Translations under genes and position numbers: made by a program
The notes under the pieces: generated by a model
The model's input: only the letters and a program-made list of their open reading frames with translations
Databases searched by the model: none
What the model was told of the DNA's origin: nothing
In this document: piece by piece, positions 10,776 to 63,884 of the stretch
Layout of the letters: every line of letters starts with the position of its first letter
How positions within the stretch are numbered: position 1 is the stretch's first letter
NCBI GenBank assembly: GCA_964642165.1
Contig: CAZXOC010000004.1
Coordinates: 2,200 to 66,199 of the forward strand
Length of the DNA: 64,000 nucleotides
From: an uncultured Planctomycetaceae bacterium
GTDB taxonomy: Bacteria > Planctomycetota > Phycisphaerae > SM23-33
Direction: 5' to 3'

Positions 10776-13700
10776 TCAGCGGCTCGCAAACGGCAGCGCC
10801 GGGAAGCCCTCGCGGTTGTACAGGTTGGCGGCGGCCGGGGCCGGCGCCCAGGCGTAACGCACGGCGACGGGCCCGTGGACCTTCCCGCAGGTGACGACGA
10901 CCGTCTCGCCCCGGATCGCCGCCGTCGCGTCCCGCCAACTGCCGTCGGCGCCGGCGACCTGGAACCCGCCGGGCGCCGCGCCGCGCGCGGGCTCGACGCC
11001 CTTGCCGGCGACCGCCCTGCCGACCATCAGCCCCCCGCCGACGTGGTCGAACTCGACGACGACGCTCCCGCCGTCCGCGCGGTGCTTCCGGTACGTCGGG
11101 CCCGTCCGGACGGACGCCTTGCTCACCAGGGCGGCGGCCCACTGCGCGGCGCGGAGGCCGGGGGCCGCATCGCTCCTCGACGTGTCCCTCAGGTCGTACG
11201 TCGCCAGGACGGTGGTGTGCGGGATCCGCGCCAGTTGGTTCTGGGCGTCCCGCAGCCGCACCCAGTCGTTCGGGTCGTCCGTGGCCCGGCTGTCGCCGCG
11301 GTCGGGGCTGTGCATCTGGACGAAGCAGACGGGCAGGTCGTCTCGCCCGAACGCCTTCCGCAGGCCGCCGATCAGGGCCTTCGCCTTGGGCAGGTACGCC
11401 GGGTCGGCGACGCTGAAGGCCTTCGGCTGGATGATGATGCCGCGGATCGCGGCGGGCGTGAAGCGGTGGATCACGTGGTTGTACGTCGTCGTCGGCGCGC
11501 GCTGGTAGTCGGGCGGGCCGGGCAGGCGCGGCGGCTGGGTCAGCTCCCGATAGGTGACGTCGCCCCTCCGCAGCGTGCGGCGTGTCTTCGCGACCCACGC
11601 GGTCACCGCGGCGAGGCCCCGGAGGTACGCCTGCTTGCCGCGCGGGGTGAAGGGCGTCCAGGTGGTCACCGTCCTGCCCAGCGGCCCCAGCTCGGCCTCG
11701 AACGCGCGGAAGCCCTCCGGCGGCGTCATCGACTCCAGCGTCGAGGCGCCCAGGCCCACGATGCCCACGGGCGCCCCCGTGCGGCGCGCCAGGCCGAGGC
11801 CCAGGTAGCAGGCGTCGTTCCGGAAGTAGCGGCTGGCGGGCGTGTAGACGGACCAGCGGCCGCCATCGCCCGCCGGGGCCTGCGGGCGCCGGGCGTGGTT
11901 CCTGTGTTCCCACACGCCGGCCGACGCGCTGGCGCAGATCGGCGGCAGAGACTCGCTGCCCGCCCGGAGCTCCTTCGGCCCCCCCACGTGCCAGGACTGG
12001 GACAGGTACAGCCACACGTCGCCGACGAACACGCCCTTGACCTGGACGGTGCGGTTCGGCCCCTTGACCACGAGCGGTCGGCCGGTGGTCGACGCGGGCA
12101 TCGGGTCGAGCTCGGCGCGCCACCGGCCGAAGCGGTCGGCGGCGGCGGTCTTCGTCTGGCCGGCGAAGGTGACGGTGACCTTCCGGCCGGGCTCGGCCCA
12201 GCCCCACACGGGGGCCCTGGCCTCGCGCTGGAGGACGCAGTTGTCCCCGATGGCCGCCGAGAGCCGCACCTCGCGTCGAGCGGCCCTGCCGCCGCGGCGC
12301 CCGGCCGGAGAGCCCTTGGCCCGGCCGGTCGGCTTCGCTGCGGCCGGGCACGGACGATCGATCGCGTAGTCGCTCGTCGTGTTGAACTGTGCCGCGGGCA
12401 GGCCGGCCTGGTTGTAGAGGAACGGCTCGTCCGCCTTCGATTTCCAGCAGTACCGCACGTCGGTCGGTTTGCTCAGGCCGTCGGCCCAGACGAGCAGCCT
12501 CTCGCCGTCGATCCTCGACCGGGCGGGGACCCAGTTTCGGCCGTCCGCGGTGATCTCCAGGTTGATCAGCTTGCCGTCGGGCAGGCGCTGGGGCGGGTCG
12601 AGCCGGTTCTTCTTCCCGATGAACAGCCCGCCGTGGGTGCAGGTGAACTCGACGACGACCTTGCCGCCCTCGACGCGATGGCGCCGGTACAGCGGGCCGG
12701 AGTAGACCACGTCCTTGCCGTATCGCTTGGCCAGGGCCCACAGGGCGAGGCGTCGGCCGGAGTCCCATTTGTTCGCGGGGTGCAGGTTCATGTCGAGGTC
12801 GAGCAGGACGGCCATGCCCGAATTCGGGATGGTGAAGTAGCTCTGGAACTGGCGGTCGCGGACGCCCGGGCTCATGTACGAGCCGCAGCGCTGCATCTGG
12901 ACGAAGTAGAACGCCAAGTCGGCGGGCTTCTCGCCGGGCGCGGCGAAGAGCGTTCGCCAGGACGCCGCCATCGCCTCGATCTCGTGCAGGTAGCGGGCGT
13001 TGGCGTAGTCCGACTCGCCCTGGTACCAGAGGATGCCCGCGACGGCATACGGCACGAGCGGGTGGACGCGCCCGTTGTAGAGGATCGTCGTGCCGCGCCC
13101 CCGGCCCTGTCCGTCATCCGGCTCGGGCAGCATCGGCTGGGGGAACGGGAACGGGTGGCCCTGCGCGACGTCCTCCCGGGCCTTCGCGGCCCAGGCGGCG
13201 ATCTCATCGACGGCCGCCTCGTAGGCGGCCCGGCCGATCCTCGTGCTCGGGTACCACGCATCGACCGTCCGGGCCGTCTCCGCCAGCTCGCCCCGCAGCC
13301 ACCAGCCGAAGCGCGGGATCCACTCCCTGGCCGTGCTGCCCGCCCAGGCGTTCCAGAGCAGCCCCTGCGGGATGCCGGTCTCCTTGTAGATCCGCTCGGC
13401 GAAGAAGAAGCCCACGGCACAGCATTCGGGCGTCGTCCGGTCGGTGCAGACGTGCCACCGGTTGGGCCTGGTCAGGCGCTTTACGCGCGGCGGGCTCGAC
13501 GGCGGCGGGGGCGGCACGAGCTTCGTCTGGGGGTACTTGCTCCCGCGGCTGGCGACGTTCAGGTAGCGGATGTGGGGGTAGTCCATCCGCTGGCCGTCGG
13601 GCAGCCAGGACCGGCGGACGTCCCGCCCCATGTTGGACTGCCCGCCGGCGATCCAGACGTCGCCGACCAGCACGTCCCGAAACGTCACCGTGCCCGACGC

Positions 13701-13982
13701 GCCCTGGACGGTCAGCTCGCGCGGCTCCGTGCTGGCCTCCAGCGGGGCCAGGCGGACCATCCAGCGCCCGTCCCCCCCGGCGGCGGCCGTCCCGCGCTGC
13801 CCGGCGAAGCGGACCGTGACTCTCTCGCCCGCCGCGGCCGTGCCCCAGATCGGCACGGCCTTGCCCCGCTGAAGGACCATGTGGTCGTTGAGCACGCTGG
13901 CCGGCTCGACCGCCGCGGCGCTGCCGCCCCACGAGGCCGCCAGCAAGACCAGCGGGTACCATCGGCGATGCCCGGTCCGCAT
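10776..13982 (-). CDS. tandem two-module SASA/sialate O-acetylesterase-like protein, secreted
   Basis: 1068 aa with a signal peptide. Module 1 has DVWIAGGQSNMGR and ILWYQGESD and ends ..FLYNQAGLPAAQF. Module 2 repeats the whole architecture (VLQREARAPVWGWAEPGRKVTVTFAGQ.. to ..VRYAWAPAPAAANLYNREGFPALPF) but reads DVWLYLSQSWHVGG and IIIQPKAFS at the two motif positions. Confidence 0.85.
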   Translation of the reverse strand: MRTGHRRWYPLVLLAASWGGSAAAVEPASVLNDHMVLQRGKAVPIWGTAAAGERVTVRFAGQRGTAAAGGDGRWMVRLAPLEASTEPRELTVQGASGTVTFRDVLVGDVWIAGGQSNMGRDVRRSWLPDGQRMDYPHIRYLNVASRGSKYPQTKLVPPPPPSSPPRVKRLTRPNRWHVCTDRTTPECCAVGFFFAERIYKETGIPQGLLWNAWAGSTAREWIPRFGWWLRGELAETARTVDAWYPSTRIGRAAYEAAVDEIAAWAAKAREDVAQGHPFPFPQPMLPEPDDGQGRGRGTTILYNGRVHPLVPYAVAGILWYQGESDYANARYLHEIEAMAASWRTLFAAPGEKPADLAFYFVQMQRCGSYMSPGVRDRQFQSYFTIPNSGMAVLLDLDMNLHPANKWDSGRRLALWALAKRYGKDVVYSGPLYRRHRVEGGKVVVEFTCTHGGLFIGKKNRLDPPQRLPDGKLINLEITADGRNWVPARSRIDGERLLVWADGLSKPTDVRYCWKSKADEPFLYNQAGLPAAQFNTTSDYAIDRPCPAAAKPTGRAKGSPAGRRGGRAARREVRLSAAIGDNCVLQREARAPVWGWAEPGRKVTVTFAGQTKTAAADRFGRWRAELDPMPASTTGRPLVVKGPNRTVQVKGVFVGDVWLYLSQSWHVGGPKELRAGSESLPPICASASAGVWEHRNHARRPQAPAGDGGRWSVYTPASRYFRNDACYLGLGLARRTGAPVGIVGLGASTLESMTPPEGFRAFEAELGPLGRTVTTWTPFTPRGKQAYLRGLAAVTAWVAKTRRTLRRGDVTYRELTQPPRLPGPPDYQRAPTTTYNHVIHRFTPAAIRGIIIQPKAFSVADPAYLPKAKALIGGLRKAFGRDDLPVCFVQMHSPDRGDSRATDDPNDWVRLRDAQNQLARIPHTTVLATYDLRDTSRSDAAPGLRAAQWAAALVSKASVRTGPTYRKHRADGGSVVVEFDHVGGGLMVGRAVAGKGVEPARGAAPGGFQVAGADGSWRDATAAIRGETVVVTCGKVHGPVAVRYAWAPAPAAANLYNREGFPALPFASR

Positions 13983-14027: not shown

Positions 14028-14522
14028 TCACTCGTCCATCTTCCCGATCTCGGCCTTGAGCTGCTCGACCTGGTCCTGCAGCTGCTTCACCTTCCTGGCG
14101 ACCTCGGGGTTCGCCTTCTGGATATAACGCCGCATCCAATCGTCGGTGTCCTGGAACTCGCCCAGGTGGTAGAGCGCCCCGCGAACGGCCGGCTTGCGGA
14201 TCGGCCAGACCGTGGCCTGGAACATCCCCGCGGGCGGCGACCCGCCCGCGCGCGGGTCACCGGGCTTGCAGGGCAGGCGCAGCCTCGGAGGCTTCTTGCC
14301 CGCGGCCTCGGCCTGCTCGACCTTCTTCGGGTGCTCGGCCCGGGCTCGCTCGCACGCCTGCTTCCACTCCCGGACGACCTGCCGGTGGTACGCCTCTCGC
14401 TCCCACTTGGCGGTCTCCGCGTCGTACGCCGCCAGGGCCTTCCGGACGAGGTCGCTGTCGAGCTTGTCCAGCTCCTCGCGCGTGCACCGCGTCTGGGCGG
14501 TCGCCCCGCCGCCCCCCGTCAT
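14028..14522 (-). pseudogene. ORF carrying a diverged internal piece of a SASA esterase; probably a truncated gene remnant (may still be expressed)
   Basis: 164-aa ORF. PPAGMFQATVWPIRKPAVRGALYHLGEFQD resembles the NGMI-PL-P-A-RG-WYQGE block of the neighbouring esterases. It is preceded by the coiled-coil/lysine-rich linker typical of these proteins. There is no N-terminal catalytic block. Its ATG (14520-14522) lies inside repeat copy 1. Confidence 0.4.
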
Positions 14523-14625
14523 CCGGCAGAATGGGCGCTTGCGGATGCTCGGGTCAGCGATAGAATCGCCAGAAAGGCCGACGGCGCTCGTCGGCGAGAA
14601 GCTATCCAGGAAATCCCGGGTAAGG
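14516..14625 (+). repeat. copy 1 of a ~110-nt inverted repeat (promoter-like boxes + hairpin + leader) directly upstream of GH95
   Basis: Aligns by hand with the reverse complement of 20350-20468. Shared runs: CCGTCATCC, TTGCGGATGCTCGG, TAGAATCG, GAAAGGCCGACGG, GCTATCCAGGAAAT. Contains TTGCGG (14539-14544), N16, TAGAAT (14561-14566), hairpin GCCGACG/CGTCGGC (14577-14595), then TAAGGAG 7 nt before ATG 14636. Confidence 0.75.
14539..14566 (+). promoter_or_regulatory. sigma70-like promoter candidate TTGCGG-N16-TAGAAT for GH95
   Basis: Hexamers read directly. The same architecture recurs in repeat copy 2 and upstream of the VWA/ExbBD operon. Confidence 0.35.
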
Positions 14626-14635
14626 AGTCACGCAA

Positions 14636-16945
14636 ATGAGAAGTAACTACGCAAGAGTCACACTTGCCCTTCTCGCCACAGCGATCACGTTTCAGCCGCT
14701 TGGAGCGGCTGAGAAGCAGGGGACCTCTCCACACAGGCAGGTCGTCTGGTCGGCCAAGCCGCTGGTGCTGCAGCCGAATCCTCCGAAACCCAGGAAGTAT
14801 TTCCAGCACATGTGGGGGTCGGGCGTGTATCCCCTGGGCAATGGCCGACTGGGATGTGCAGTCTACGGGGCAACCGACAAAGAACGTATCCAGTTCAACG
14901 AAGACACGTTGTGGACAGGTGACGAGGACAATACCGGAGCGTACCAGAACTTCGGGGAAATGTTCATCGCGCTCGACGGCCACACAAACGCATCAACGGG
15001 CGACATCAACTACCGGCGCGAGCTGGATATTGGAAAGGCGCTCCACACCATCAGCTACAAAGTGGCGGGCGTCCGGTACCGGCGCGAGTATTTCGCAAGT
15101 CATCCGGCCAACGTGCTGGTCTTCCGTTTCACGGCCGACAAGAAAGGCGCCTATACCGGGACGGTCACCCTCAAGGATGCCCACCCGGCAGGCGAAATGG
15201 AGGCCGTCGGCAACACGATCACCTTTTCCGGCGCACTTGGCCCGGGGAAGATGAATTTGAAATACGAGGCCCGGGCCAAGGTCCTGAACGAGGGCGGCTC
15301 CCTCGGCGCGACCGACGGGGCCGTGTCGTTCAAAGATTGCGACAGCCTGGTGATCCTGCTGGATGCCGGAACCGACTACCTCAACCAGCGCAAGAAGGGC
15401 TGGAAGCAGGAGCACCCGCACGAGAAGATCTCGCGGCGACTCGCAGAAGCGTCAAAGAGCTCCTTCGATGACCTGCTGGCGGAACATATCAAGGACTACC
15501 AGGGCCTTTTCAGCCGCGTGACACTGGACGTGGGCACCACCCCTCGCGCAACGCAGAGCCTTCAGACCGCGGACAGGCTAACGGCCTACCGCCAGAACAA
15601 GCCGGATCCGGATCTCGAGGAGCTGCTGTTTCAATACGCGCGATACCTCATGATCAGCAGTTCACGGCCCGGCAACATGCCCGCCAACCTGCAGGGATTG
15701 TGGAACCCCTATAACTGGCCGCCATGGCGTTCCGATTATCATTCGGATGTCAACGTGGAGATGAATTACTGGTTCGTCGACCAGGCAAACCTCTCGGAGT
15801 GCTTTTCGCCCTATTCCGAATGGCTCTACTCGGTCATTCCGGTACGACGCGACGCGACCCGGAAAGAATTCGGGGTGCGGGGCTGGATGACCCGCTCGGA
15901 GAACGGGATCTTCGGCGGAGCAACCTATCATTGGGTCCCGGGCGATTCGGCATGGCTTGCACAAAACATATGGGACCACTATGCCTTTACCGTGGACAAG
16001 GACTACCTGAAGACCAGGGCATATCCCATAATCAAAGAGCTCTGCGAGTGCTGGGAAGATCATCTCAAGGAAGGGCCCGACGGCAAACTCATCAGCCCTG
16101 AAAGCATATCTCCTGAGCACGGTCCAAAGGCAGAAGGCAACTCATACGAACAGCAACTCGTCTACGATCTCTTTTCCAACTATATCCAAGCTTCGAAAGC
16201 ACTGGGCGTGGACGAACAGTTCAGGAAAAAGGTGGAGTCGATGAGGGCACGTCTGCTCGGCCCGCGAATCGGCAAGTGGGGGCAGTTGCAGGAGTGGGCC
16301 GAGGATCTGGATGACCCGAAGGATAAGCACCGGCACCTCTCGCACTTGATCGCTGTGCATCCCGGTCGACAGATCTCGCCGCTGACCACTCCGAGACTGG
16401 CCGAAGCGGCGAAAGTCTCCATGAACGCACGCGGCGACGGGGCCACGGGCTGGAGCAAGGCCTGGAAGATCGCCATCTGGGCGCGCCTCCACGATGGCGA
16501 TCGCGCCTATAAGGTGTTGGGGGAATTCATCAAGAGAAATGTCTATCCCAACCTGTTCGGCTTTCATCCGCCGTTCCAGATCGACTGCAATTTCGGGTAT
16601 GCGGCAGGCGTCAACGAGATGCTGGTCCAATCCCACATGCATGTGGCGAGTGCCCCATCGCCAGGCGGGACACCCGACACGCGTCTGGTTCACCTCCTGC
16701 CCGCACTGCCAAAGGCATGGCCTTCCGGGGCGGTCAAAGGCATGCGGGTACGGGGCGGATATGAGCTGAACATGGAATGGAAGGACGGCAAGCTGGTCAA
16801 GGCCACACTGAGGGGTGTGTCCAATGAGAAGACCCCGGTGACTGTGCGCTACGGGGCGGCAACCACAACTGTCAAGCCGGCCAGAGACGAATCACGGGTG
16901 CTTCACGTGAGTGACTTCAGACCAAAGGAAAGAAGCAAGACATAA
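14636..16945 (+). CDS. glycoside hydrolase family 95 (alpha-L-fucosidase-type), secreted
   Basis: 769 aa with a signal peptide. GH95 hallmarks: NEDTLWTG, LQGLWNPYNWPPWRSDYHSDVNVEMNYW, FHPPFQIDCNFG. Visibly lower GC than the flanks. Confidence 0.92.
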   Translation: MRSNYARVTLALLATAITFQPLGAAEKQGTSPHRQVVWSAKPLVLQPNPPKPRKYFQHMWGSGVYPLGNGRLGCAVYGATDKERIQFNEDTLWTGDEDNTGAYQNFGEMFIALDGHTNASTGDINYRRELDIGKALHTISYKVAGVRYRREYFASHPANVLVFRFTADKKGAYTGTVTLKDAHPAGEMEAVGNTITFSGALGPGKMNLKYEARAKVLNEGGSLGATDGAVSFKDCDSLVILLDAGTDYLNQRKKGWKQEHPHEKISRRLAEASKSSFDDLLAEHIKDYQGLFSRVTLDVGTTPRATQSLQTADRLTAYRQNKPDPDLEELLFQYARYLMISSSRPGNMPANLQGLWNPYNWPPWRSDYHSDVNVEMNYWFVDQANLSECFSPYSEWLYSVIPVRRDATRKEFGVRGWMTRSENGIFGGATYHWVPGDSAWLAQNIWDHYAFTVDKDYLKTRAYPIIKELCECWEDHLKEGPDGKLISPESISPEHGPKAEGNSYEQQLVYDLFSNYIQASKALGVDEQFRKKVESMRARLLGPRIGKWGQLQEWAEDLDDPKDKHRHLSHLIAVHPGRQISPLTTPRLAEAAKVSMNARGDGATGWSKAWKIAIWARLHDGDRAYKVLGEFIKRNVYPNLFGFHPPFQIDCNFGYAAGVNEMLVQSHMHVASAPSPGGTPDTRLVHLLPALPKAWPSGAVKGMRVRGGYELNMEWKDGKLVKATLRGVSNEKTPVTVRYGAATTTVKPARDESRVLHVSDFRPKERSKT

Positions 16946-17037
16946 ACAGAAATCGGATCTCATTGTAGTGGCCCGGCGGATTGCCCCTGGGGTTTCTCGG
17001 GCCTTCTCGTTGTTGCGCTGGTCCAGCGACTTGCGGC

Positions 17038-17215
17038 TCTCGGCAGTCCAGGGCGTCCACCCGGCCGGGCCGTCCAGGTCCCGCCTGGGCTTGTACCACG
17101 ACGCATCCAGCCGGCAGTACCGCAGGTGCGGCATGTCGGGGGCGTTCAGCTCGGTGTCCTTGGTCTCGTGGTTGCCCCAGACCATGTTGGACTGCCCCGC
17201 GCAGGGCCAGACCTC
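17038..17215 (-). pseudogene. N-terminal-block fragment of a SASA esterase gene
   Basis: Within ORF 16892..17350: GEVWPCAGQSNMVWGNHETKDTELNAPDMPHLRYCRLD matches only the GQSNM block region of the esterases. No signal peptide and no downstream domains. Sits between two convergent genes. Confidence 0.5.
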
Positions 17216-17531
17216 GCCTTCCGTATCTCCCTCGTCACCATCGCGCGATAGCGCAGCTATGACGAACAACCTCGGAACGAAGAACGGGAACGCCGCAGAG
17301 TGCAACTCTCCAAGCAAGTTGAACCAGAATGACGCCAATTCGGTAAACACGCTTCATGACGCAGTTCTCCTTGAATTCCGTGGTAGTCCACATAGACGGT
17401 TCCGGCATGTGCGGTTCCCGATCATACAGAGGCAGCAGCACCATTGTGGCCGAACCGATCCGGTAGAGCAGCTCCGGAGCCGACGTGATGCCGTCAGGAG
17501 GACTGCTCGCGACAACAGAGACCGATTATCT

Positions 17532-20024
17532 CTATTCAGCGACCTTTCGTTCCTTAAGAGGATACCACCTGTCAATCCTGGATCGCAAAGACCTATACAC
17601 CTTGGGCAGCTTGCCGTATAGATTCTCGTGCTCGAACGGATCGCCGACAAGGTCGTACAGTTCGGGCCCCGTATCTTTGCTCGCGCGTTCGCGCGTGCTG
17701 CCAGCATAGGTTCCCTCCCCATCATAGCTCAGGATCAATTTGTGCCGCTTGTGGATCACCCAGCGCTTGAGCAGTACGGCTTCGGGATTCCCCATGCTGG
17801 CGACGTCACGGGCATAGGCCTCGCCGAAGATGGCCCTGTCGGCAATCTTCGTCTTGCCCTCCATCACGGGCAGGAGATTCATCCCCGGAAGCGCTTTCTC
17901 TGGTGGCGCGGCGCCTGCCGCAGCGAGGATGGTGGGGACGACGTCCACACTGCTGACCGGACATTCGCTCACGGCCGGCTTGAGTCTTGCGGGCCACGAA
18001 CAGATGATCGGCGAACGCACGCCCGCGTCGTACGGCGATCCCTTGCTGCGCGGCGCGTAGTCTCCACGCCTTCGGATCGATACCCATCCGTTCGCGCTCT
18101 GATACACAATCAGGGTATCGTCACGGAGTCCCTTCTTTTCCAGATGAGCGATCAGCTCGCCACAGTGTTCGTCGAACCACTCGATCAATGCGTAGTATCG
18201 TGGGATGTCACCGCGACCATGGCCGACAATGAACTTCTGGTTTTCCACAATCCTCTCAGGCGCGACCTTCATGCCGGTGGGCAGCCGCCCGTTGTGGTTA
18301 AAGGCGGGCAGCGCCGGTGCATACCAGAGCAAGAACGGTTTCTTCTCCTTCGCCGCCATATCGATGAAATCGGTGCAGGCCTTCACGGCGCCCGTGCCGA
18401 TCCCGGGCTTGTCATAGCTGAGATCGCCTCTCTCGGCGGTTCCGTGCGTGAATCCGGCGTCGGCATACCGGCCCTCGAACCATCGGCCGCTCTGATAGCT
18501 GACGTACCCCTGCGCCTTCAAGAGTCGTGGCAGCGTTTCAAAGCCGGCTATGGTCGAGACCGGCCGGGGAGCCTTCTTGAAGGCCCCTTCGTAGCTCACA
18601 AGGTCGTCCACCGTGATGCCATGCTCGTGGGCGTAGCGGCCCGTTGCCAGGGTCATCAATGAGGACCGGCTCCACGCCGTCGGGACATATCCCCTTTTGA
18701 AGAGCACGCCGCTTGCGGCCAGCTTCGACAGATGCGGCGTGTTGACGTGGATATTGCCCATGAACGAGTAATCCGTCCACGCCAAGTCGTCCGCGGTGAT
18801 CACAACGATGTTGGGCTTCGTCGAGTCCGCGTTGGCCACGGGCTGTTTCTTCGGCTCCGGGAGCTTGATCCACTCACCCTTTTCGCTCCTGACCGTATCC
18901 AGTCCTACGCCGTGATAGGCGCGAGCAAGCGTTGCGATGTTCCGGTCATCCCCCTTCAGACCATGCACGGGTCGCGCCAGCAGTGCTGCCAGGCGCCTGC
19001 TGTCCTTTCCACGAGGATCGCTGAATCCGTACAGGCCAACACCCGCCTTCAGTGCCTGGGGCACGACTTTGGTTGCGTCCACGCCGGTCCAGGCCGCCAT
19101 GCAGGTGATCAGCCGGGTATGTGTGCCGACCATGCCCTTGACCTTGTCGATGCGCCCCATGTCACCGATTTCGTTCATCAGCCAGTCGGCCCCCCGGTAC
19201 ATGTTTGAGTCGACGACATGGGGGTGGTCCATGTGGTTGCTGGTGATCCAGACAATGCACTTCGGGTCGGCCTCCTTGGCTGCCTTCCGGATGCTTTTCC
19301 AGCAACGGTCAATGGCCTTGCGGCTGTAAGCGAGTTCCTGCCTCACGGTAAGCGCATCGTCCCCGGGATACGGCTCGCCCATCAGTTGCTTGTACAGCTT
19401 CTTCTCGCACTCGATCCACTTGCCGTTGGTCGGCTTACGCGTCGGCTGCCACACCCAGTCGATCATGAATCCGTCGATGCCCGTCTTGCGTACTGCGTCG
19501 CCGATCGATTTCGACAGGAAGTCGAGATACTCGTCCGTGTAGACAACATGATAACCGCCGCTTATCTTCCCGTCTTTGTCGGCTGTGTAGTTCAAGTCCG
19601 GTCGCAGTGCAGCCCACCTTGGATTGCTGCCAATGGTGAAGTAGCCCATCACGAGCATGCCTTCGGCGTGCCCGAGCTTCACCATCTCCGGCAGGAAGTC
19701 ATGCTTCAGGCCCGGCTGGGCCGGCACGAAACCGTTCTTGTACCAGGCATAGCCGTTGGTCGAGACGCAGAACGTCTGGATGACATTGACGCCCAGCATT
19801 CTGTACCAGGCCAGATGGGTCGCCGGATCGGTCTTGGCAAACACCCCAAGTCTCGCCAGCCTTGGCCGGCCATATGGCTTCTCCCAGTTGAAATCGATGC
19901 AGTAGGCCTTGATGTCCTTGATCGAGCCGGCGTTGACCGGCTTACGTGCCTTCGCCGGCGTGTCCGCCCAGGCGGTGCCGACCACGATCAACACCAGCCA
20001 TAGCACCAGTGCTTTCGTTGTCAT
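17532..20024 (-). CDS. secreted fusion: glycoside-hydrolase-like TIM-barrel domain + sulfatase-like (alkaline-phosphatase superfamily) domain lacking the C/S-x-P-x-R signature
   Basis: ORF 17532..20162, trimmed to MTTKALVLWLVLIVVGTAWA (ATG 20022-20024). The N-terminal half resembles an uncharacterised GH-like barrel (GFMIDWVW, IVWITSNH). The C-terminal half has KPNIVVITADDLAWTDYSFMGN..TPHLSKLAASGVLF..PTAWSRSSLMTLATGRYAHEHG, later SKGSPYDAGVRSPI. Confidence 0.85.
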   Translation of the reverse strand: MTTKALVLWLVLIVVGTAWADTPAKARKPVNAGSIKDIKAYCIDFNWEKPYGRPRLARLGVFAKTDPATHLAWYRMLGVNVIQTFCVSTNGYAWYKNGFVPAQPGLKHDFLPEMVKLGHAEGMLVMGYFTIGSNPRWAALRPDLNYTADKDGKISGGYHVVYTDEYLDFLSKSIGDAVRKTGIDGFMIDWVWQPTRKPTNGKWIECEKKLYKQLMGEPYPGDDALTVRQELAYSRKAIDRCWKSIRKAAKEADPKCIVWITSNHMDHPHVVDSNMYRGADWLMNEIGDMGRIDKVKGMVGTHTRLITCMAAWTGVDATKVVPQALKAGVGLYGFSDPRGKDSRRLAALLARPVHGLKGDDRNIATLARAYHGVGLDTVRSEKGEWIKLPEPKKQPVANADSTKPNIVVITADDLAWTDYSFMGNIHVNTPHLSKLAASGVLFKRGYVPTAWSRSSLMTLATGRYAHEHGITVDDLVSYEGAFKKAPRPVSTIAGFETLPRLLKAQGYVSYQSGRWFEGRYADAGFTHGTAERGDLSYDKPGIGTGAVKACTDFIDMAAKEKKPFLLWYAPALPAFNHNGRLPTGMKVAPERIVENQKFIVGHGRGDIPRYYALIEWFDEHCGELIAHLEKKGLRDDTLIVYQSANGWVSIRRRGDYAPRSKGSPYDAGVRSPIICSWPARLKPAVSECPVSSVDVVPTILAAAGAAPPEKALPGMNLLPVMEGKTKIADRAIFGEAYARDVASMGNPEAVLLKRWVIHKRHKLILSYDGEGTYAGSTRERASKDTGPELYDLVGDPFEHENLYGKLPKVYRSLRSRIDRWYPLKERKVAE

Positions 20025-20085
20025 GATGGTGTCCTGCCGCTTGTGACGTCCTTCGCTGTTTCGATGGTTCATCATGTTCTTCCGC

Positions 20086-20334
20086 TTCTGTAGTAAAGGG
20101 TGAAGCCGGCAAGCCGGCGGAATTGTAGAGGTAGACCCCGAGCGGGCGATTGGCATAGGCATAGCGAACCGCCACCGGATTGGTCACCCTCTTGTCGGAT
20201 ACGATCAGGCCCGCACCGTCAATTCTCCCGTCGGCCCAGTGCCACGTGCCGTCTTTGTCCTGAATCGACAGCCACGGTATCTTCTTCCCGGCGACAGGCA
20301 CGGGTGGCGTGTAGTTGGCCTTTGTGGCAGCCAT
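20086..20334 (-). pseudogene. C-terminal-domain fragment of a SASA esterase fused to repeat copy 2
   Basis: In ORF 19942..20445, from MAATKANY: ..WHWADGRIDGAGLIVSDKRVTNPVAVRYAYANRPLGVYLYNSAGLPASPFTTE matches only the last ~80 aa of the intact esterases. The frame then runs on into the start of the sulfatase-fusion gene. Confidence 0.55.
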
Positions 20335-20349
20335 GAGCTCCTGGGCATA

Positions 20350-20468
20350 CTCAACCGGAATTTCCTGGATAGCCTCCGGCCGATCCCGGCGCGCCGGGAC
20401 CGTCGGCCTTTCGGACGATTCTACCGTTGATCCGAGCATCCGCAAACGCCGTTCCTGCTGGATGACGG
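20350..20468 (-). repeat. copy 2 of the ~110-nt inverted repeat (promoter-like boxes + hairpin + leader)
   Basis: The reverse complement aligns with 14516-14625. TTGCGG (20440-20445 on the complement), N16, TAGAAT (20418-20423 on the complement). The hairpin is extended (GGCCGA..TCCCGG CGCG CCGGGA TCGGCC). CTATCCAGGAAAT and AGGAG then precede ATG 20334. Confidence 0.75.
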
Positions 20469-20773
20469 TGGTGGTCCTCCATCAACTCGGCGATGACCTC
20501 GTCCTTGCGGGCGATCTTGGCCTGGAGCTTTTCGACGCGTTCTGCCAGGTGGCGCGTCTTGGCGTCGGCGGCGGAGCGTCGCTTCTCGAAGGCCGCCGCG
20601 CCGTTCTCGAAGAACTCCTTCTGCCATCGGTAGAAGGCTGTGGGGTTGAGGCCGTGCCTGTCGCAGACCTTCGAGACGGGAACCTTCTCGATCAGATGCT
20701 CCCGCACGATCGCCACCTTCTGCTGGCCCGTGAACCGCCGTCGCGGGCCTTTGAGCTGTTCGTCCATGGACAT
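20469..20773 (-). mobile_element. IS3-family transposase OrfA (HTH) remnant, 3'-truncated at the repeat boundary
   Basis: ORF 20351..20773: RRFTGQQKVAIVREHLIEKVPVSKVCDRHGLNPTAFYRWQKEFFENGAAAF..LQAKIARKDEVIAELMED is a typical IS3/IS911 OrfA. Similarity stops at about 20469 and no OrfB follows. A candidate left IR, TGTAAAGCTCCAG.., ends near 20841. Confidence 0.7.
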
Positions 20774-20837
20774 CTCCTTACCGATTGGCTCTTCTATCTA
20801 ACCGAACCGGTCGCGATGTCCAATTCCGACTGGAGCT

Positions 20838-21095
20838 TTACAAGGCGGCCTGCTTGGTACGAGCGCGTCCGCCGACCACGTAGCGCATCGAGGGATCGAC
20901 TTTCAGCCGCTCCGCATCGTTGGTGTCCTCGTAGCCGGCCAAGCGACTGAAGACCGACTGCCGCAGCAGCCCGCCGTCCGAGGAGACTTTCGAGCCGTGG
21001 AATTCGAGCTTGATCGAGCCCTCGAAACCCTCCCGGAGAGCGTCCTTGCCGGCTTCACCCATTGCATCTTCGCCTTCTGCCGTCCGTGGCGTCAA
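20838..21095 (-). mobile_element. IS1380-like (DDE group 1) transposase N-terminal fragment, interrupted by the IS3 remnant
   Basis: 85-aa ORF. ..VSSDGGLLRQSVFSRLAGYEDTNDAERLKVDP.. resembles the IS1380-family N-terminus (TSDAGLLLL ... LLRQRV..GYED.ND...LR.DP), apparently with an internal deletion. The frame ends where the putative IS3 end begins. Family assignment is from memory of the motif only. Confidence 0.5.
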
Positions 21096-21762
21096 GAAAG
21101 CCCTGTGTTCATGCGGTCAAACGACGCTGTATTGTACGTGAACTGTGACTCCTATCCGGGAAATCCGGGTACGAAGGCCTTCCCGACACGTTCGGGTCGT
21201 GATCTCCATGCAGGCGTTGCCTGCCGCCTGGCGGATGATCCGGACCTCGGTGATCTCACCTAGCGGGCTCGACCGGAAGCTCGGCCAGATTCCGCCGCCG
21301 ACAGCCGCGACGCGCCGGGCCGGAACGGGACCTGACGGACGCGCTACGCTCCGAGGTGCACGGATCTCCCGCTGCGAGCGATCGGACCGGCCATTACACA
21401 CCGCCGGGTGGCCCTTCGTTCGGCGCCGAGCCCGCCCGATGGGGGTCGGTTCCCCATGGCCCCGTACGGGGAACGCCCGCAGATTGCGGTCGTGATGACC
21501 GTAGCGAGGGCGCCGGAATGCCCCGGCGAGCGACGTGCGAAGCTCGCCGGGCGGCTCAACGCGCCGGGAAGACGTAACCGACTATGAGATAATAGCTAAC
21601 AGCAGAATCCCCCGCGGCGCGGTGGGCGCTGGACACGCGCGGGGCCAAGCCCGAACGCAGGCAGCCAAACCGTGTCATTGATTGTCCGACGCCCCGCAAG
21701 CGTCTTGAAAGCGGTACGGTATTAAAGCACTATTATACAACAGGTTATAAGAAAAGCCCGTT

Positions 21763-21790
21763 TGTGTCAACATGGATTAAAGTTGACACA
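21763..21790. repeat. perfect 9-bp inverted repeat TGTGTCAAC-N10-GTTGACACA in an AT-rich patch
   Basis: Read directly. Embedded in the only strongly AT-rich stretch of the window (about 21570-21790). Each arm contains TTGACA. Confidence 0.5.
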
Positions 21791-21990
21791 ATCACGACAC
21801 GTTGGCGGCGTTGCAGCGGGGCCGCTTCGAGCAGGCCGCCCGAGACCAGCAGAACCACAGGCCACGAGGCCGATCGCTGACGGGCATGCATCTGCATCGG
21901 GGATCTCCCGGGGAGAACCGTCGCCCGGCTCGGCTCATCGTGTTGGTCGGCTGATCCCCGTGCAAGCCGCTGAGGGGCGCTGTCGTGCCG

Positions 21991-54381: not shown

Positions 54382-54455
54382 AGGCGGCAGTGGGATTCGA
54401 ACCCACGAATAACGGATTTGCAATCCGTCGCCTTGGTCCACTTGGCTATGCCGCC
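54382..54455 (-). tRNA. tRNA-Cys (anticodon GCA)
   Basis: The reverse complement folds as a cloverleaf. Acceptor GGCGGCA/TGCCGCC, anticodon arm ACGGA-TTGCAAA-TCCGT, T arm GTGGG-TTCGAAT-CCCAC. No encoded CCA. Confidence 0.93.
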
Positions 54456-63802: not shown

Positions 63803-63884
63803 GCGAGGGTGGCGGAATTGGCAGACGCGCCAGGTTTAGGTCCTGGTCCCGAAAGGGGTGTGGGTTCGAGTCCCGCCCCTCGCA
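63803..63884 (+). tRNA. tRNA-Leu (anticodon TAG), class II long variable arm
   Basis: Acceptor GCGAGGG/CCCTCGC, anticodon arm CCAGG-TTTAGGT-CCTGG, variable arm TCCCGAAAGGGGTG, T arm GTGGG-TTCGAGT-CCCGC. Confidence 0.93.

Follow-up and report, generated by a model that had tools for sequence, protein, structure and literature searches.

A 64-kb window from an uncultured Planctomycetaceae bacterium (64,000 nt of contig CAZXOC010000004.1, assembly GCA_964642165.1, to which all coordinates below refer) contains two inward-facing copies of a ~110-nt sequence, here termed arm 1 and arm 2, which bracket a low-GC island of glycan-degradation genes. Judged by sequence comparison, each arm consists of the last ~110 nt, at the right (3') end, of an insertion sequence (IS) of the IS1380 family. 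The arms are probably outward-promoter remnants of these right ends that have become fixed upstream of genes, as described for ISEcp1 and ISPme1. The finding is a known kind of thing, IS right-end remnants with a predicted outward promoter, and not a new kind of element. A preliminary description of this DNA, made from the letters alone, had named the end of an IS as the case that would speak against its own readings, and that case applies.

The inward-facing inverted repeat reported in the preliminary description is real. A repeat search recovered it as two blocks, one of 72 nt (14513-14584 / 20400-20471, 85% identity) and one of 34 nt (14591-14624 / 20350-20383, 82% identity). The conserved blocks occur at only two places in the window, a count seen in 0 of 100 shuffles. 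The homologous limits of the arms (Table 1) were set by nhmmer with a profile made from the 3'-end sequences of related elements; arm 1 covers profile positions 148-261 and arm 2 positions 156-261. Overall, the arms are about 80-85% identical, and both belong to the TTGCGGATGCTCGG subtype. They are ~80% identical to each other and 79% identical to copies in other organisms, and are not recent duplicates. The TTGCGG-N16-TAGAAT pair and the GCTATCCAGGAAAT block lie in both arms, as described earlier. The ribosome-binding site and ATG that had been counted as part of the repeat lie outside it. At arm 1, the AAGGAG...ATG is the native 5' end of the adjacent GH95 gene, also present at a locus (L131) that lacks the unit. 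At arm 2, the AGGAG lies only 3 nt before the ATG, inside an esterase fragment. Nor has the hairpin kept its stem while its bases changed. The basal stem, GCCGA/TCGGC, is identical in the two arms, and the single indel that parts them in a MAFFT alignment is a 10-nt insertion that lengthens the stem of arm 2, with no compensatory change.

A relaxed search with the GCTATCCAGGAAAT block revealed a third, partial copy at 21151-21169 on the + strand. This copy lies ~110 nt upstream, on the minus strand, of an IS1380-type transposase fragment, the place expected of a left inverted repeat (IRL), and this pointed to the inner tips of both arms as its counterparts, the right inverted repeats (IRRs). 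A protein search with the transposase fragment returned short proteins only and no full-length relative directly, but led to contigs of the same species. Complete elements came from an exact-pattern scan of public metagenomes with GCTATCCAGGAAATNCCGG, which gave 78 loci, ~35 of them with the whole unit. In every locus with the whole unit, similarity ends exactly after ...CCCGG, the IS tip. One locus (L012) holds a complete element of 1678 bp, consisting of IRL CCCGGATTTCCCAGATAG, a single open reading frame (ORF) of 456 codons, 230 nt of 3' sequence and IRR. The unit is the last ~110 nt of this 3' sequence, past the transposase stop codon. The L012 transposase scored 366.7 bits against the NCBIfam model for IS1380 family transposases (NF033539; cutoff 180). 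IS1380-family elements are typically ~1.65-1.7 kb long with a single transposase ORF, and the L012 element fits this norm in both respects.

Two further complete copies, at L084 and L097, are 82% and 87% identical to that of L012. All three are metagenomic, are ~1.68 kb long and end in the terminal inverted repeat ...CTATCCAGGAAATCCCGG; their terminal repeats are mirrored (IRL CCCGGATTTCCCAGATAG versus CCGGGATTTCCTGGATAG, the reverse complement of the IRR). Because the three complete copies are independent, chimeric assembly is unlikely to have produced them. Smaller derivatives were also found, namely an internally deleted element of 613 bp (L030) and an element of ~105 bp with both IRL and IRR (L062), which resembles a miniature inverted-repeat transposable element (MITE). 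The flanks just outside both ends of these five elements tend to be T/A-rich (NTNA) and often hold the ribosome-binding site of the downstream gene. In the window, arm 1 aligns by blastn with positions 1613-1678 of the L012 element. The DNA beyond arm 2 (21169-20845, minus strand) matches positions 1-207 (82%) and 310-433 (80%) of the same element, in the orientation expected if arm 2 is the IRR end of that copy. The ORF at 20841-21095 (minus strand) encodes an N-terminal transposase fragment that matches both Pfam DDE_Tnp_1_4 and the NCBIfam IS1380 model.

The element is common in Planctomycetota-type genomes. In a second scan, of species-representative genomes, the full unit was present in metagenome-assembled genomes (MAGs) labelled Planctomycetaceae, Phycisphaerae, Thermoguttaceae, Planctomycetales and Kiritimatiellae, plus two Anaerolineales bins. 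An earlier scan of representative genomes with the promoter block GGATGCTCGGNTCANCGNTAGAAT, which is specific to one subtype, gave no match in a set that does not include the source genome. A profile search recovered many more solo tails, up to five per contig. Contigs with 2-5 solo tails include L024 (7741-8010), L074 (321-694), L122 (five copies), L080 and L050. On some multi-tail contigs the tails form back-to-back pairs, with diverging promoters and an IRR at both outer tips, and these resemble bidirectional promoter MITEs. Unlike a MITE, the window arms themselves have no inverted repeat at their outer ends.

The unit contains a predicted sigma-70-like outward promoter, TTGCSG-N16-TAGAAT, located within the IS end. 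Transcription is predicted to start at ~14573 (+) in arm 1 and ~20411 (-) in arm 2, in each case just before the hairpin. We aligned 34 distinct units to assess conservation of the boxes. The T's at either end of the -10 box never vary; the two A's of this box, like the TG of the -35 box, are conserved at 90% or more. We then considered the downstream DNA, on which the search pattern set no constraint, taking as the best ORF the one with the highest GC content at third codon positions (GC3). In 26 of ~27 independent downstream contexts, from Planctomycetota and related MAGs, the best ORF was co-oriented with the unit (binomial p = 2e-7). These ORFs start 10-400 nt past the IRR, with a median of ~45 nt, and 19 of them have Pfam matches that bear them out as real genes. 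Glycan-related products are GH101-like, GH43 and GH36C proteins, three SASA esterases, an AXE1-type esterase, a sulfatase, an alpha-L-fucosidase, an arylsulfotransferase and a beta-helix lyase; the others are two GFO/IDH oxidoreductases, an aldolase, GDPD, GmrSD and an alanine dehydrogenase. On their 5' side, remnants tend to be truncated just upstream of the -35 box: 19 of 36 truncation points fall within a 45-nt span (p = 5e-6), although the ends of local alignments depend on divergence. Thus the idea of a portable promoter/leader cassette, put forward in the preliminary description, stands insofar as the unit recurs upstream of co-oriented genes, often for glycan degradation. It is portable as an IS end, and not as a dedicated cassette of a regulon.

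Several observations weigh against fixed outward promoters on IS1380-family ends. A simple sigma-70 scan flags neither arm, because the -35 TTGCGG matches TTGACA at only 3 of 6 positions; the box is weak by E. coli rules, and those of planctomycete promoters are poorly known. Among copies not chosen by the IRR pattern, the two promoter boxes are conserved at 0.77 and 0.87 versus 0.82 for the IRR. This is no clear difference, and hence there is no clear sign of selection on the promoter alone. The orientation bias of downstream genes could come in part from a preference in where the IS inserts rather than from selection. The cuts in the two arms map to nearly one IS position (within ~8 nt), which requires either selection or coincidence. 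As for the hairpin, its folding energy is no better than that of shuffled sequence (z -1.9 to +0.2), and its covariation, a check proposed in the preliminary description, is not above shuffles. Finally, IS1380-family elements generate target-site duplications of 4-5 bp, yet none flanks the complete, deleted or MITE-like copies at L012, L084, L097, L030 and L062, which is atypical for the family; none was found at the back-to-back tail pairs either. The copies may be old or rearranged, which would account for the missing duplications.

The closest known systems are two members of the same family. ISEcp1 and ISPme1 have strong outward promoters at their 3' ends and mobilise 3'-adjacent DNA (PMC9330008). 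An ISEcp1 copy reduced to a promoter-bearing remnant of ~200 bp has been described upstream of a carbapenemase gene (PMC9330008). ISEcp1, found upstream of blaCTX-M and blaOXA-181/232, shares with the window-type element its family by NCBIfam model, a -35/-10 outward promoter (predicted here) in the non-coding 3' end just inside the IRR, a co-oriented gene a few tens of nt downstream, and the loss of all but a short, promoter-bearing remnant (PMC9330008). It differs in its transposase, which is only ~26% identical to ours, and in accompanying resistance genes, whereas here the hosts are Planctomycetota and other members of the Planctomycetes-Verrucomicrobia-Chlamydiae (PVC) group and the cargo degrades glycans. 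The conserved hairpin after the promoter and the lack of a visible target-site duplication also set our element apart from ISEcp1. ISPme1, from Paracoccus, mobilises variable lengths of 3'-adjacent DNA (PMC9330008). Its 3' outward promoter has a predicted counterpart here, and the window shows an IS together with 3'-adjacent gene fragments cut at the IRR; surrogate ends, by contrast, were not identified in the window.

Within annotated collections, the closest relative is an unannotated IS present in four copies on a Microvirga ossetica plasmid (NZ_CP016617, L135), whose transposase is 68.6% identical in amino-acid sequence to that of L012 over 94% of its length. By eye, its 3' end also has a -35/-10-like pair, a hairpin and an IRR ...GGGGAATGTCGGG. 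However, this 3' end has no sequence similarity detectable by nhmmer, and the host is from a different phylum. A more distant parallel is provided by the Correia elements of Neisseria, short dispersed repeats of ~100 nt that derive from mobile DNA and supply outward promoters and RNA hairpins to their neighbours. As complete MITEs, Correia elements have a repeat at each end and TA duplications, whereas the window arms have an inverted repeat at one end only and are deletion remnants of a full IS.

Antibiotic resistance is the best-known setting in which IS-borne promoters become fixed before genes; here they would serve genes for carbohydrate degradation in environmental PVC bacteria, a group with poorly characterised promoters. 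The conserved TTGCCG-N16-TAGAAT unit is a candidate for a promoter native to planctomycetes and might be put to use as a genetic tool. For the window itself, the 110-nt inverted repeat that had seemed puzzling is explained as ordinary debris of mobile elements, and the borders of the island can be fixed at 14505-21169.

One border is the cut edge of arm 1 and the other the IRL of arm 2's copy, and the GC shift coincides with both. GC content falls from 72-74% to 56-63% at ~14500 and returns to ~72% near 21250, bearing out the earlier remark that the DNA between and just beyond the repeats is less GC-rich. GC3 is 0.72-0.77 in the island genes, 0.72-0.84 in the SASA fragments, 0.89 in the IS3 fragment and 0.95-0.97 in host genes. 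The island genes look foreign and the IS3 fragment host-like. Two gene modules converge within the island (Table 1). The GH95 gene starts 16 nt past the arm 1 IRR, in the same orientation as the predicted arm 1 promoter. The GHL6-sulfatase gene lies downstream of arm 2, again co-oriented. Between arm 2 and this gene lies what is left of a SASA esterase gene, its C-terminal 96 residues, cut off precisely at the IRR tip (blastx, 56% identity to residues 387-482 of a 485-residue SASA protein, E 2e-29). An N-terminal SASA fragment (17025..17350) is cut where it meets the GH95 3' flank; ~25 nt of it is also kept in L129, a relative of the GH95 locus, and it has no Pfam match. On the far side of arm 2, an IS3 fragment, whose truncated orfA ORF spans 20476-20773 (minus strand), sits inside the IS1380 copy, between its left end and arm 2, which are ~700 nt apart.

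Table 1. Features of the low-GC island and its edges, in window coordinates
Feature	Position	Strand	Basis or remark
164-aa ORF	14028-14522	-	codon-position GC 0.71/0.47/0.95, host-type; ATG inside arm 1
Arm 1, solo right-end remnant of IS1380-family IS	14505..14619	+	nhmmer E 4e-30; blastn to L012
Arm 1, TTGCGG-N16-TAGAAT	14539-14566		
Arm 1, -35-like TTGCGG	14539-14544		
Arm 1, -10-like TAGAAT	14561-14566		
Arm 1, hairpin	14577-14595		
Arm 1, GCTATCCAGGAAAT block	14601-14614		
Arm 1, IRR CTATCCAGGAAATCCCGG	14602-14619		
GH95 alpha-L-fucosidase-type gene	14636..16945	+	Pfam Glyco_hydro_95_cat E 1e-149
SASA-type carbohydrate esterase, N-terminal fragment (GQSNM motif)	17025..17350	-	BLASTP vs neighbouring SASA protein E 6e-4
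GHL6 (TIM-barrel) + sulfatase fusion gene	17532..20024	-	Pfam Sulfatase 2.4e-35, GHL6 7.9e-12
SASA esterase gene, C-terminal fragment	20089..20354	-	BLASTP E 5e-11 to window's SASA protein
Arm 2, right end of gutted IS1380-family copy	20355..20470	-	nhmmer E 5e-23
Arm 2, TTGCGG-N16-TAGAAT	20445-20418		
Arm 2, -35	20445-20440		
Arm 2, -10	20423-20418		
Arm 2, long hairpin	20408-20378		
Arm 2, GCTATCCAGGAAAT block	20373-20360		
Arm 2, IRR	20372-20355		
IS3-family fragment: left inverted repeat TGGACATCGCGACC... and orfA truncated at ~codon 108	20476..20823	-	Pfam HTH_Tnp_1 6.5e-14; NCBIfam transpos_IS3
Left end of arm 2's IS1380 copy: IRL CCCGGATTTCCCGGATAGG (21169-21151), 5' untranslated region, transposase N-terminus	20845..21169	-	blastn to L012

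The following course of events explains this layout. The left IS1380-family copy has lost all but its tail, which is now fused 16 nt upstream of GH95. The right copy, which retains its IRL and the N-terminus of its transposase (21169-20845), received an IS3 insertion. A single deletion after that insertion took away most of both elements, leaving arm 2 against the truncated esterase gene and, beyond it, the GHL6-sulfatase gene. The gap holds the left end of IS3 with part of orfA, and one insertion of IS3 with one later deletion is enough to explain the arrangement. A resident IS3 probably struck the foreign element after its arrival, as suggested by the GC3 of its fragment (0.89 versus 0.72-0.77 for the island genes). 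Both tails would now act as promoters of two convergent gene modules in a horizontally acquired, lower-GC glycan-degradation island, in parallel with the "promoter fixation" of ISEcp1 and ISPme1. That the arms look like an inverted repeat would be a by-product of two facing IS copies, and not a sign that they work as a pair.

Broken genes had been reported at the outer ends of both copies. This is confirmed for IS3 orfA next to arm 2, and it is plausible for the ORF at 14028-14522, which is genuine coding DNA with host-type codons, starts inside arm 1 and has no Pfam or NCBIfam match. This ORF is probably an N-terminally truncated host gene. We rejected the possibility that it and the two esterase fragments are parts of one split gene; its BLASTP match to SASA has an E of 2.5, and its GC3 is 0.95 versus 0.72-0.84 in the esterase fragments. 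By blastx, neither this ORF nor the N-terminal SASA fragment matched the esterases of the cluster.

For comparison, we examined related loci that carry the same genes. The closest homologue of the window GH95 is at L129/L130 (93% amino-acid identity), in a different genomic neighbourhood. These loci share the unit|GH95 junction, with a more degenerate unit followed by IRR|ATAAGGAGTCACGCAGATG, and are 93.6% identical to window 14569-16961 at the nucleotide level. The module common to the window and L129 comprises the unit, GH95 and ~90 nt. Just past the GH95 stop, the window has a 52-nt insertion relative to L129 (16962-17011), with a terminator-like hairpin at 16986-17001. By contrast, L131 has a 78%-identical GH95 without the unit, in a co-directional array behind co-oriented DUF6288, SASA and small ORFs. 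Its native GH95 5' end reads ...CAAACAAAGGAGCCACGCAAATG, including the AAGGAG...ATG of the window gene. Together, the shared junction and the unit-free L131 indicate that the IS inserted a few bases before the ribosome-binding site of GH95. The shared junction further indicates that the unit|GH95 fusion is older than the split between the window and L129/L130 loci.

Relatives of the GHL6-sulfatase are always found in long co-directional glycan-degradation arrays, behind a co-oriented gene. In the window, this array is cut by arm 2, inside the SASA gene, and on that side the IS tail alone would be left to supply transcription. The arrays elsewhere (L132-L134 and the context of P0244) have the order DUF6288-SASA-GHL6sulfatase-SASA-SASA, or also include GH95 and a GDSL lipase; they look like a cluster for degradation of sulfated or acetylated fucose-glycans.

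How the island came together is less certain than what the arms are, with joined modules and a composite transposon as the two candidate routes. A credible route, though we would put it at somewhat less than even chances, is that each IS mobilised its 3'-adjacent DNA by means of a surrogate right end, in the manner of ISEcp1 and ISPme1. GH95 would then be one transposable module and "SASA-GHL6-sulfatase-SASA" the other, the two being joined tail to tail. Such behaviour is known for the family (PMC9330008). A gene is cut exactly at the arm 2 IRR tip, the missing half of the esterase is not found beyond the IRL, where DNA of host GC begins, and the unit, GH95 and ~90 nt recur in another context at L129. 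On the other hand, inspection by eye of the arm 1 cut edge and the region after GH95 gave no convincing surrogate IRR at the module ends, no target-site duplications were found, and deletions could yield the same picture. This route concerns the origin of the island and is compatible with fixed IS-borne promoters as the explanation of how it functions.

Alternatively, but with clearly lower probability, the island could be a decayed composite transposon, in which two inverted IS copies flanking the carbohydrate-active genes moved the whole 6.7 kb in one transposition, in the manner of Tn10, and the arms are the inside ends. The right border of the island does coincide with the IRL and the GC shift, and the arms share the TTGCGGATGCTCGG subtype and are each other's closest relatives in the collected set (80%). 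But copies in other organisms are very nearly as close to them (79%), and the two arms carry different hairpin variants. Two complete flanking copies are not in evidence: the left copy is 115 nt only, its outer end missing, and the right copy is gutted. Moreover, the GH95 module occurs elsewhere with the same junction and without the sulfatase module, pointing to separate histories of the two island halves. This separate occurrence favours the two-module route over the composite transposon. The related proposal of the preliminary description, that the repeats are long terminal inverted repeats of a non-autonomous transposon, is not borne out. The true inverted repeat is only ~18 nt at the inner tip of each arm, and the arms are inside ends of two IS copies.

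A broader role for the unit can be envisaged, but we consider it doubtful. In this view, the IS tail of ~100 nt would be a promoter-leader module that has been domesticated and kept by selection, and that transposition has spread before dozens of genes for secreted or polysaccharide-degrading proteins in Planctomycetota and Kiritimatiellota. The spacer palindrome and the 5' hairpin would then provide a shared regulatory input, and the two window arms would be nodes of a dispersed regulon.

A dedicated cis-regulatory RNA leader or operator cassette, independent of transposons, is very improbable. Here the hairpin and the GCTATCCAGGAAAT block would form a riboswitch-like or protein-binding element that co-regulates a glycan regulon. 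In keeping with this, the position of the hairpin is conserved, 89% of cells are paired, four pairs are changed on both sides, and the downstream genes are enriched for glycan degradation. Long-stem insertion variants recur (L013, L035, L048, L050 and L077), and the arm 2 insertion is among them, being shared with L013. One subfamily has in addition a palindrome between the -35 and -10 boxes, but this is paired in only 61% of cells. An Rfam scan of the whole window gave no match at either arm. The GCTATCCAGGAAAT block is a transposase-binding terminal repeat, and complete copies have its mirror image at the IRL. In all loci the similarity runs to the IS tip and no further, the unit does occur within transposase-bearing elements, and the downstream genes include those for aldolase, GmrSD, alanine dehydrogenase and GDPD. 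Lastly, the arms are inverted and inward-facing, as required of an invertible 5.7-kb segment that switches expression, but this possibility, raised in the preliminary description, is not supported: the window and three further, independent long assemblies of the same locus (L002, L003 and L006, 99% identical and colinear across both arms) have a single orientation, the arms are only ~80-85% identical and differ by an indel, the island ORFs include no gene for an invertase or recombinase, and a flip would leave each promoter facing the same gene.

Other features of the window were noted in passing. Directly to the left of the island, which itself carries SASA fragments, 10776-13982 (minus strand) encodes a protein of 1068 residues with two tandem SASA-esterase-like halves. 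To its right, 21550-21990 is an AT-rich (58-60% GC) host intergenic stretch adjoining a lysA-like (Orn/DAP decarboxylase) gene, with a palindrome of operator-like look, TTGTGTCAACATGGATTAAAGTTGACACAA, at ~21761-21790. The sole Rfam matches in the window are two tRNA genes, at 54382-54455 (minus strand) and 63803-63884 (plus strand).

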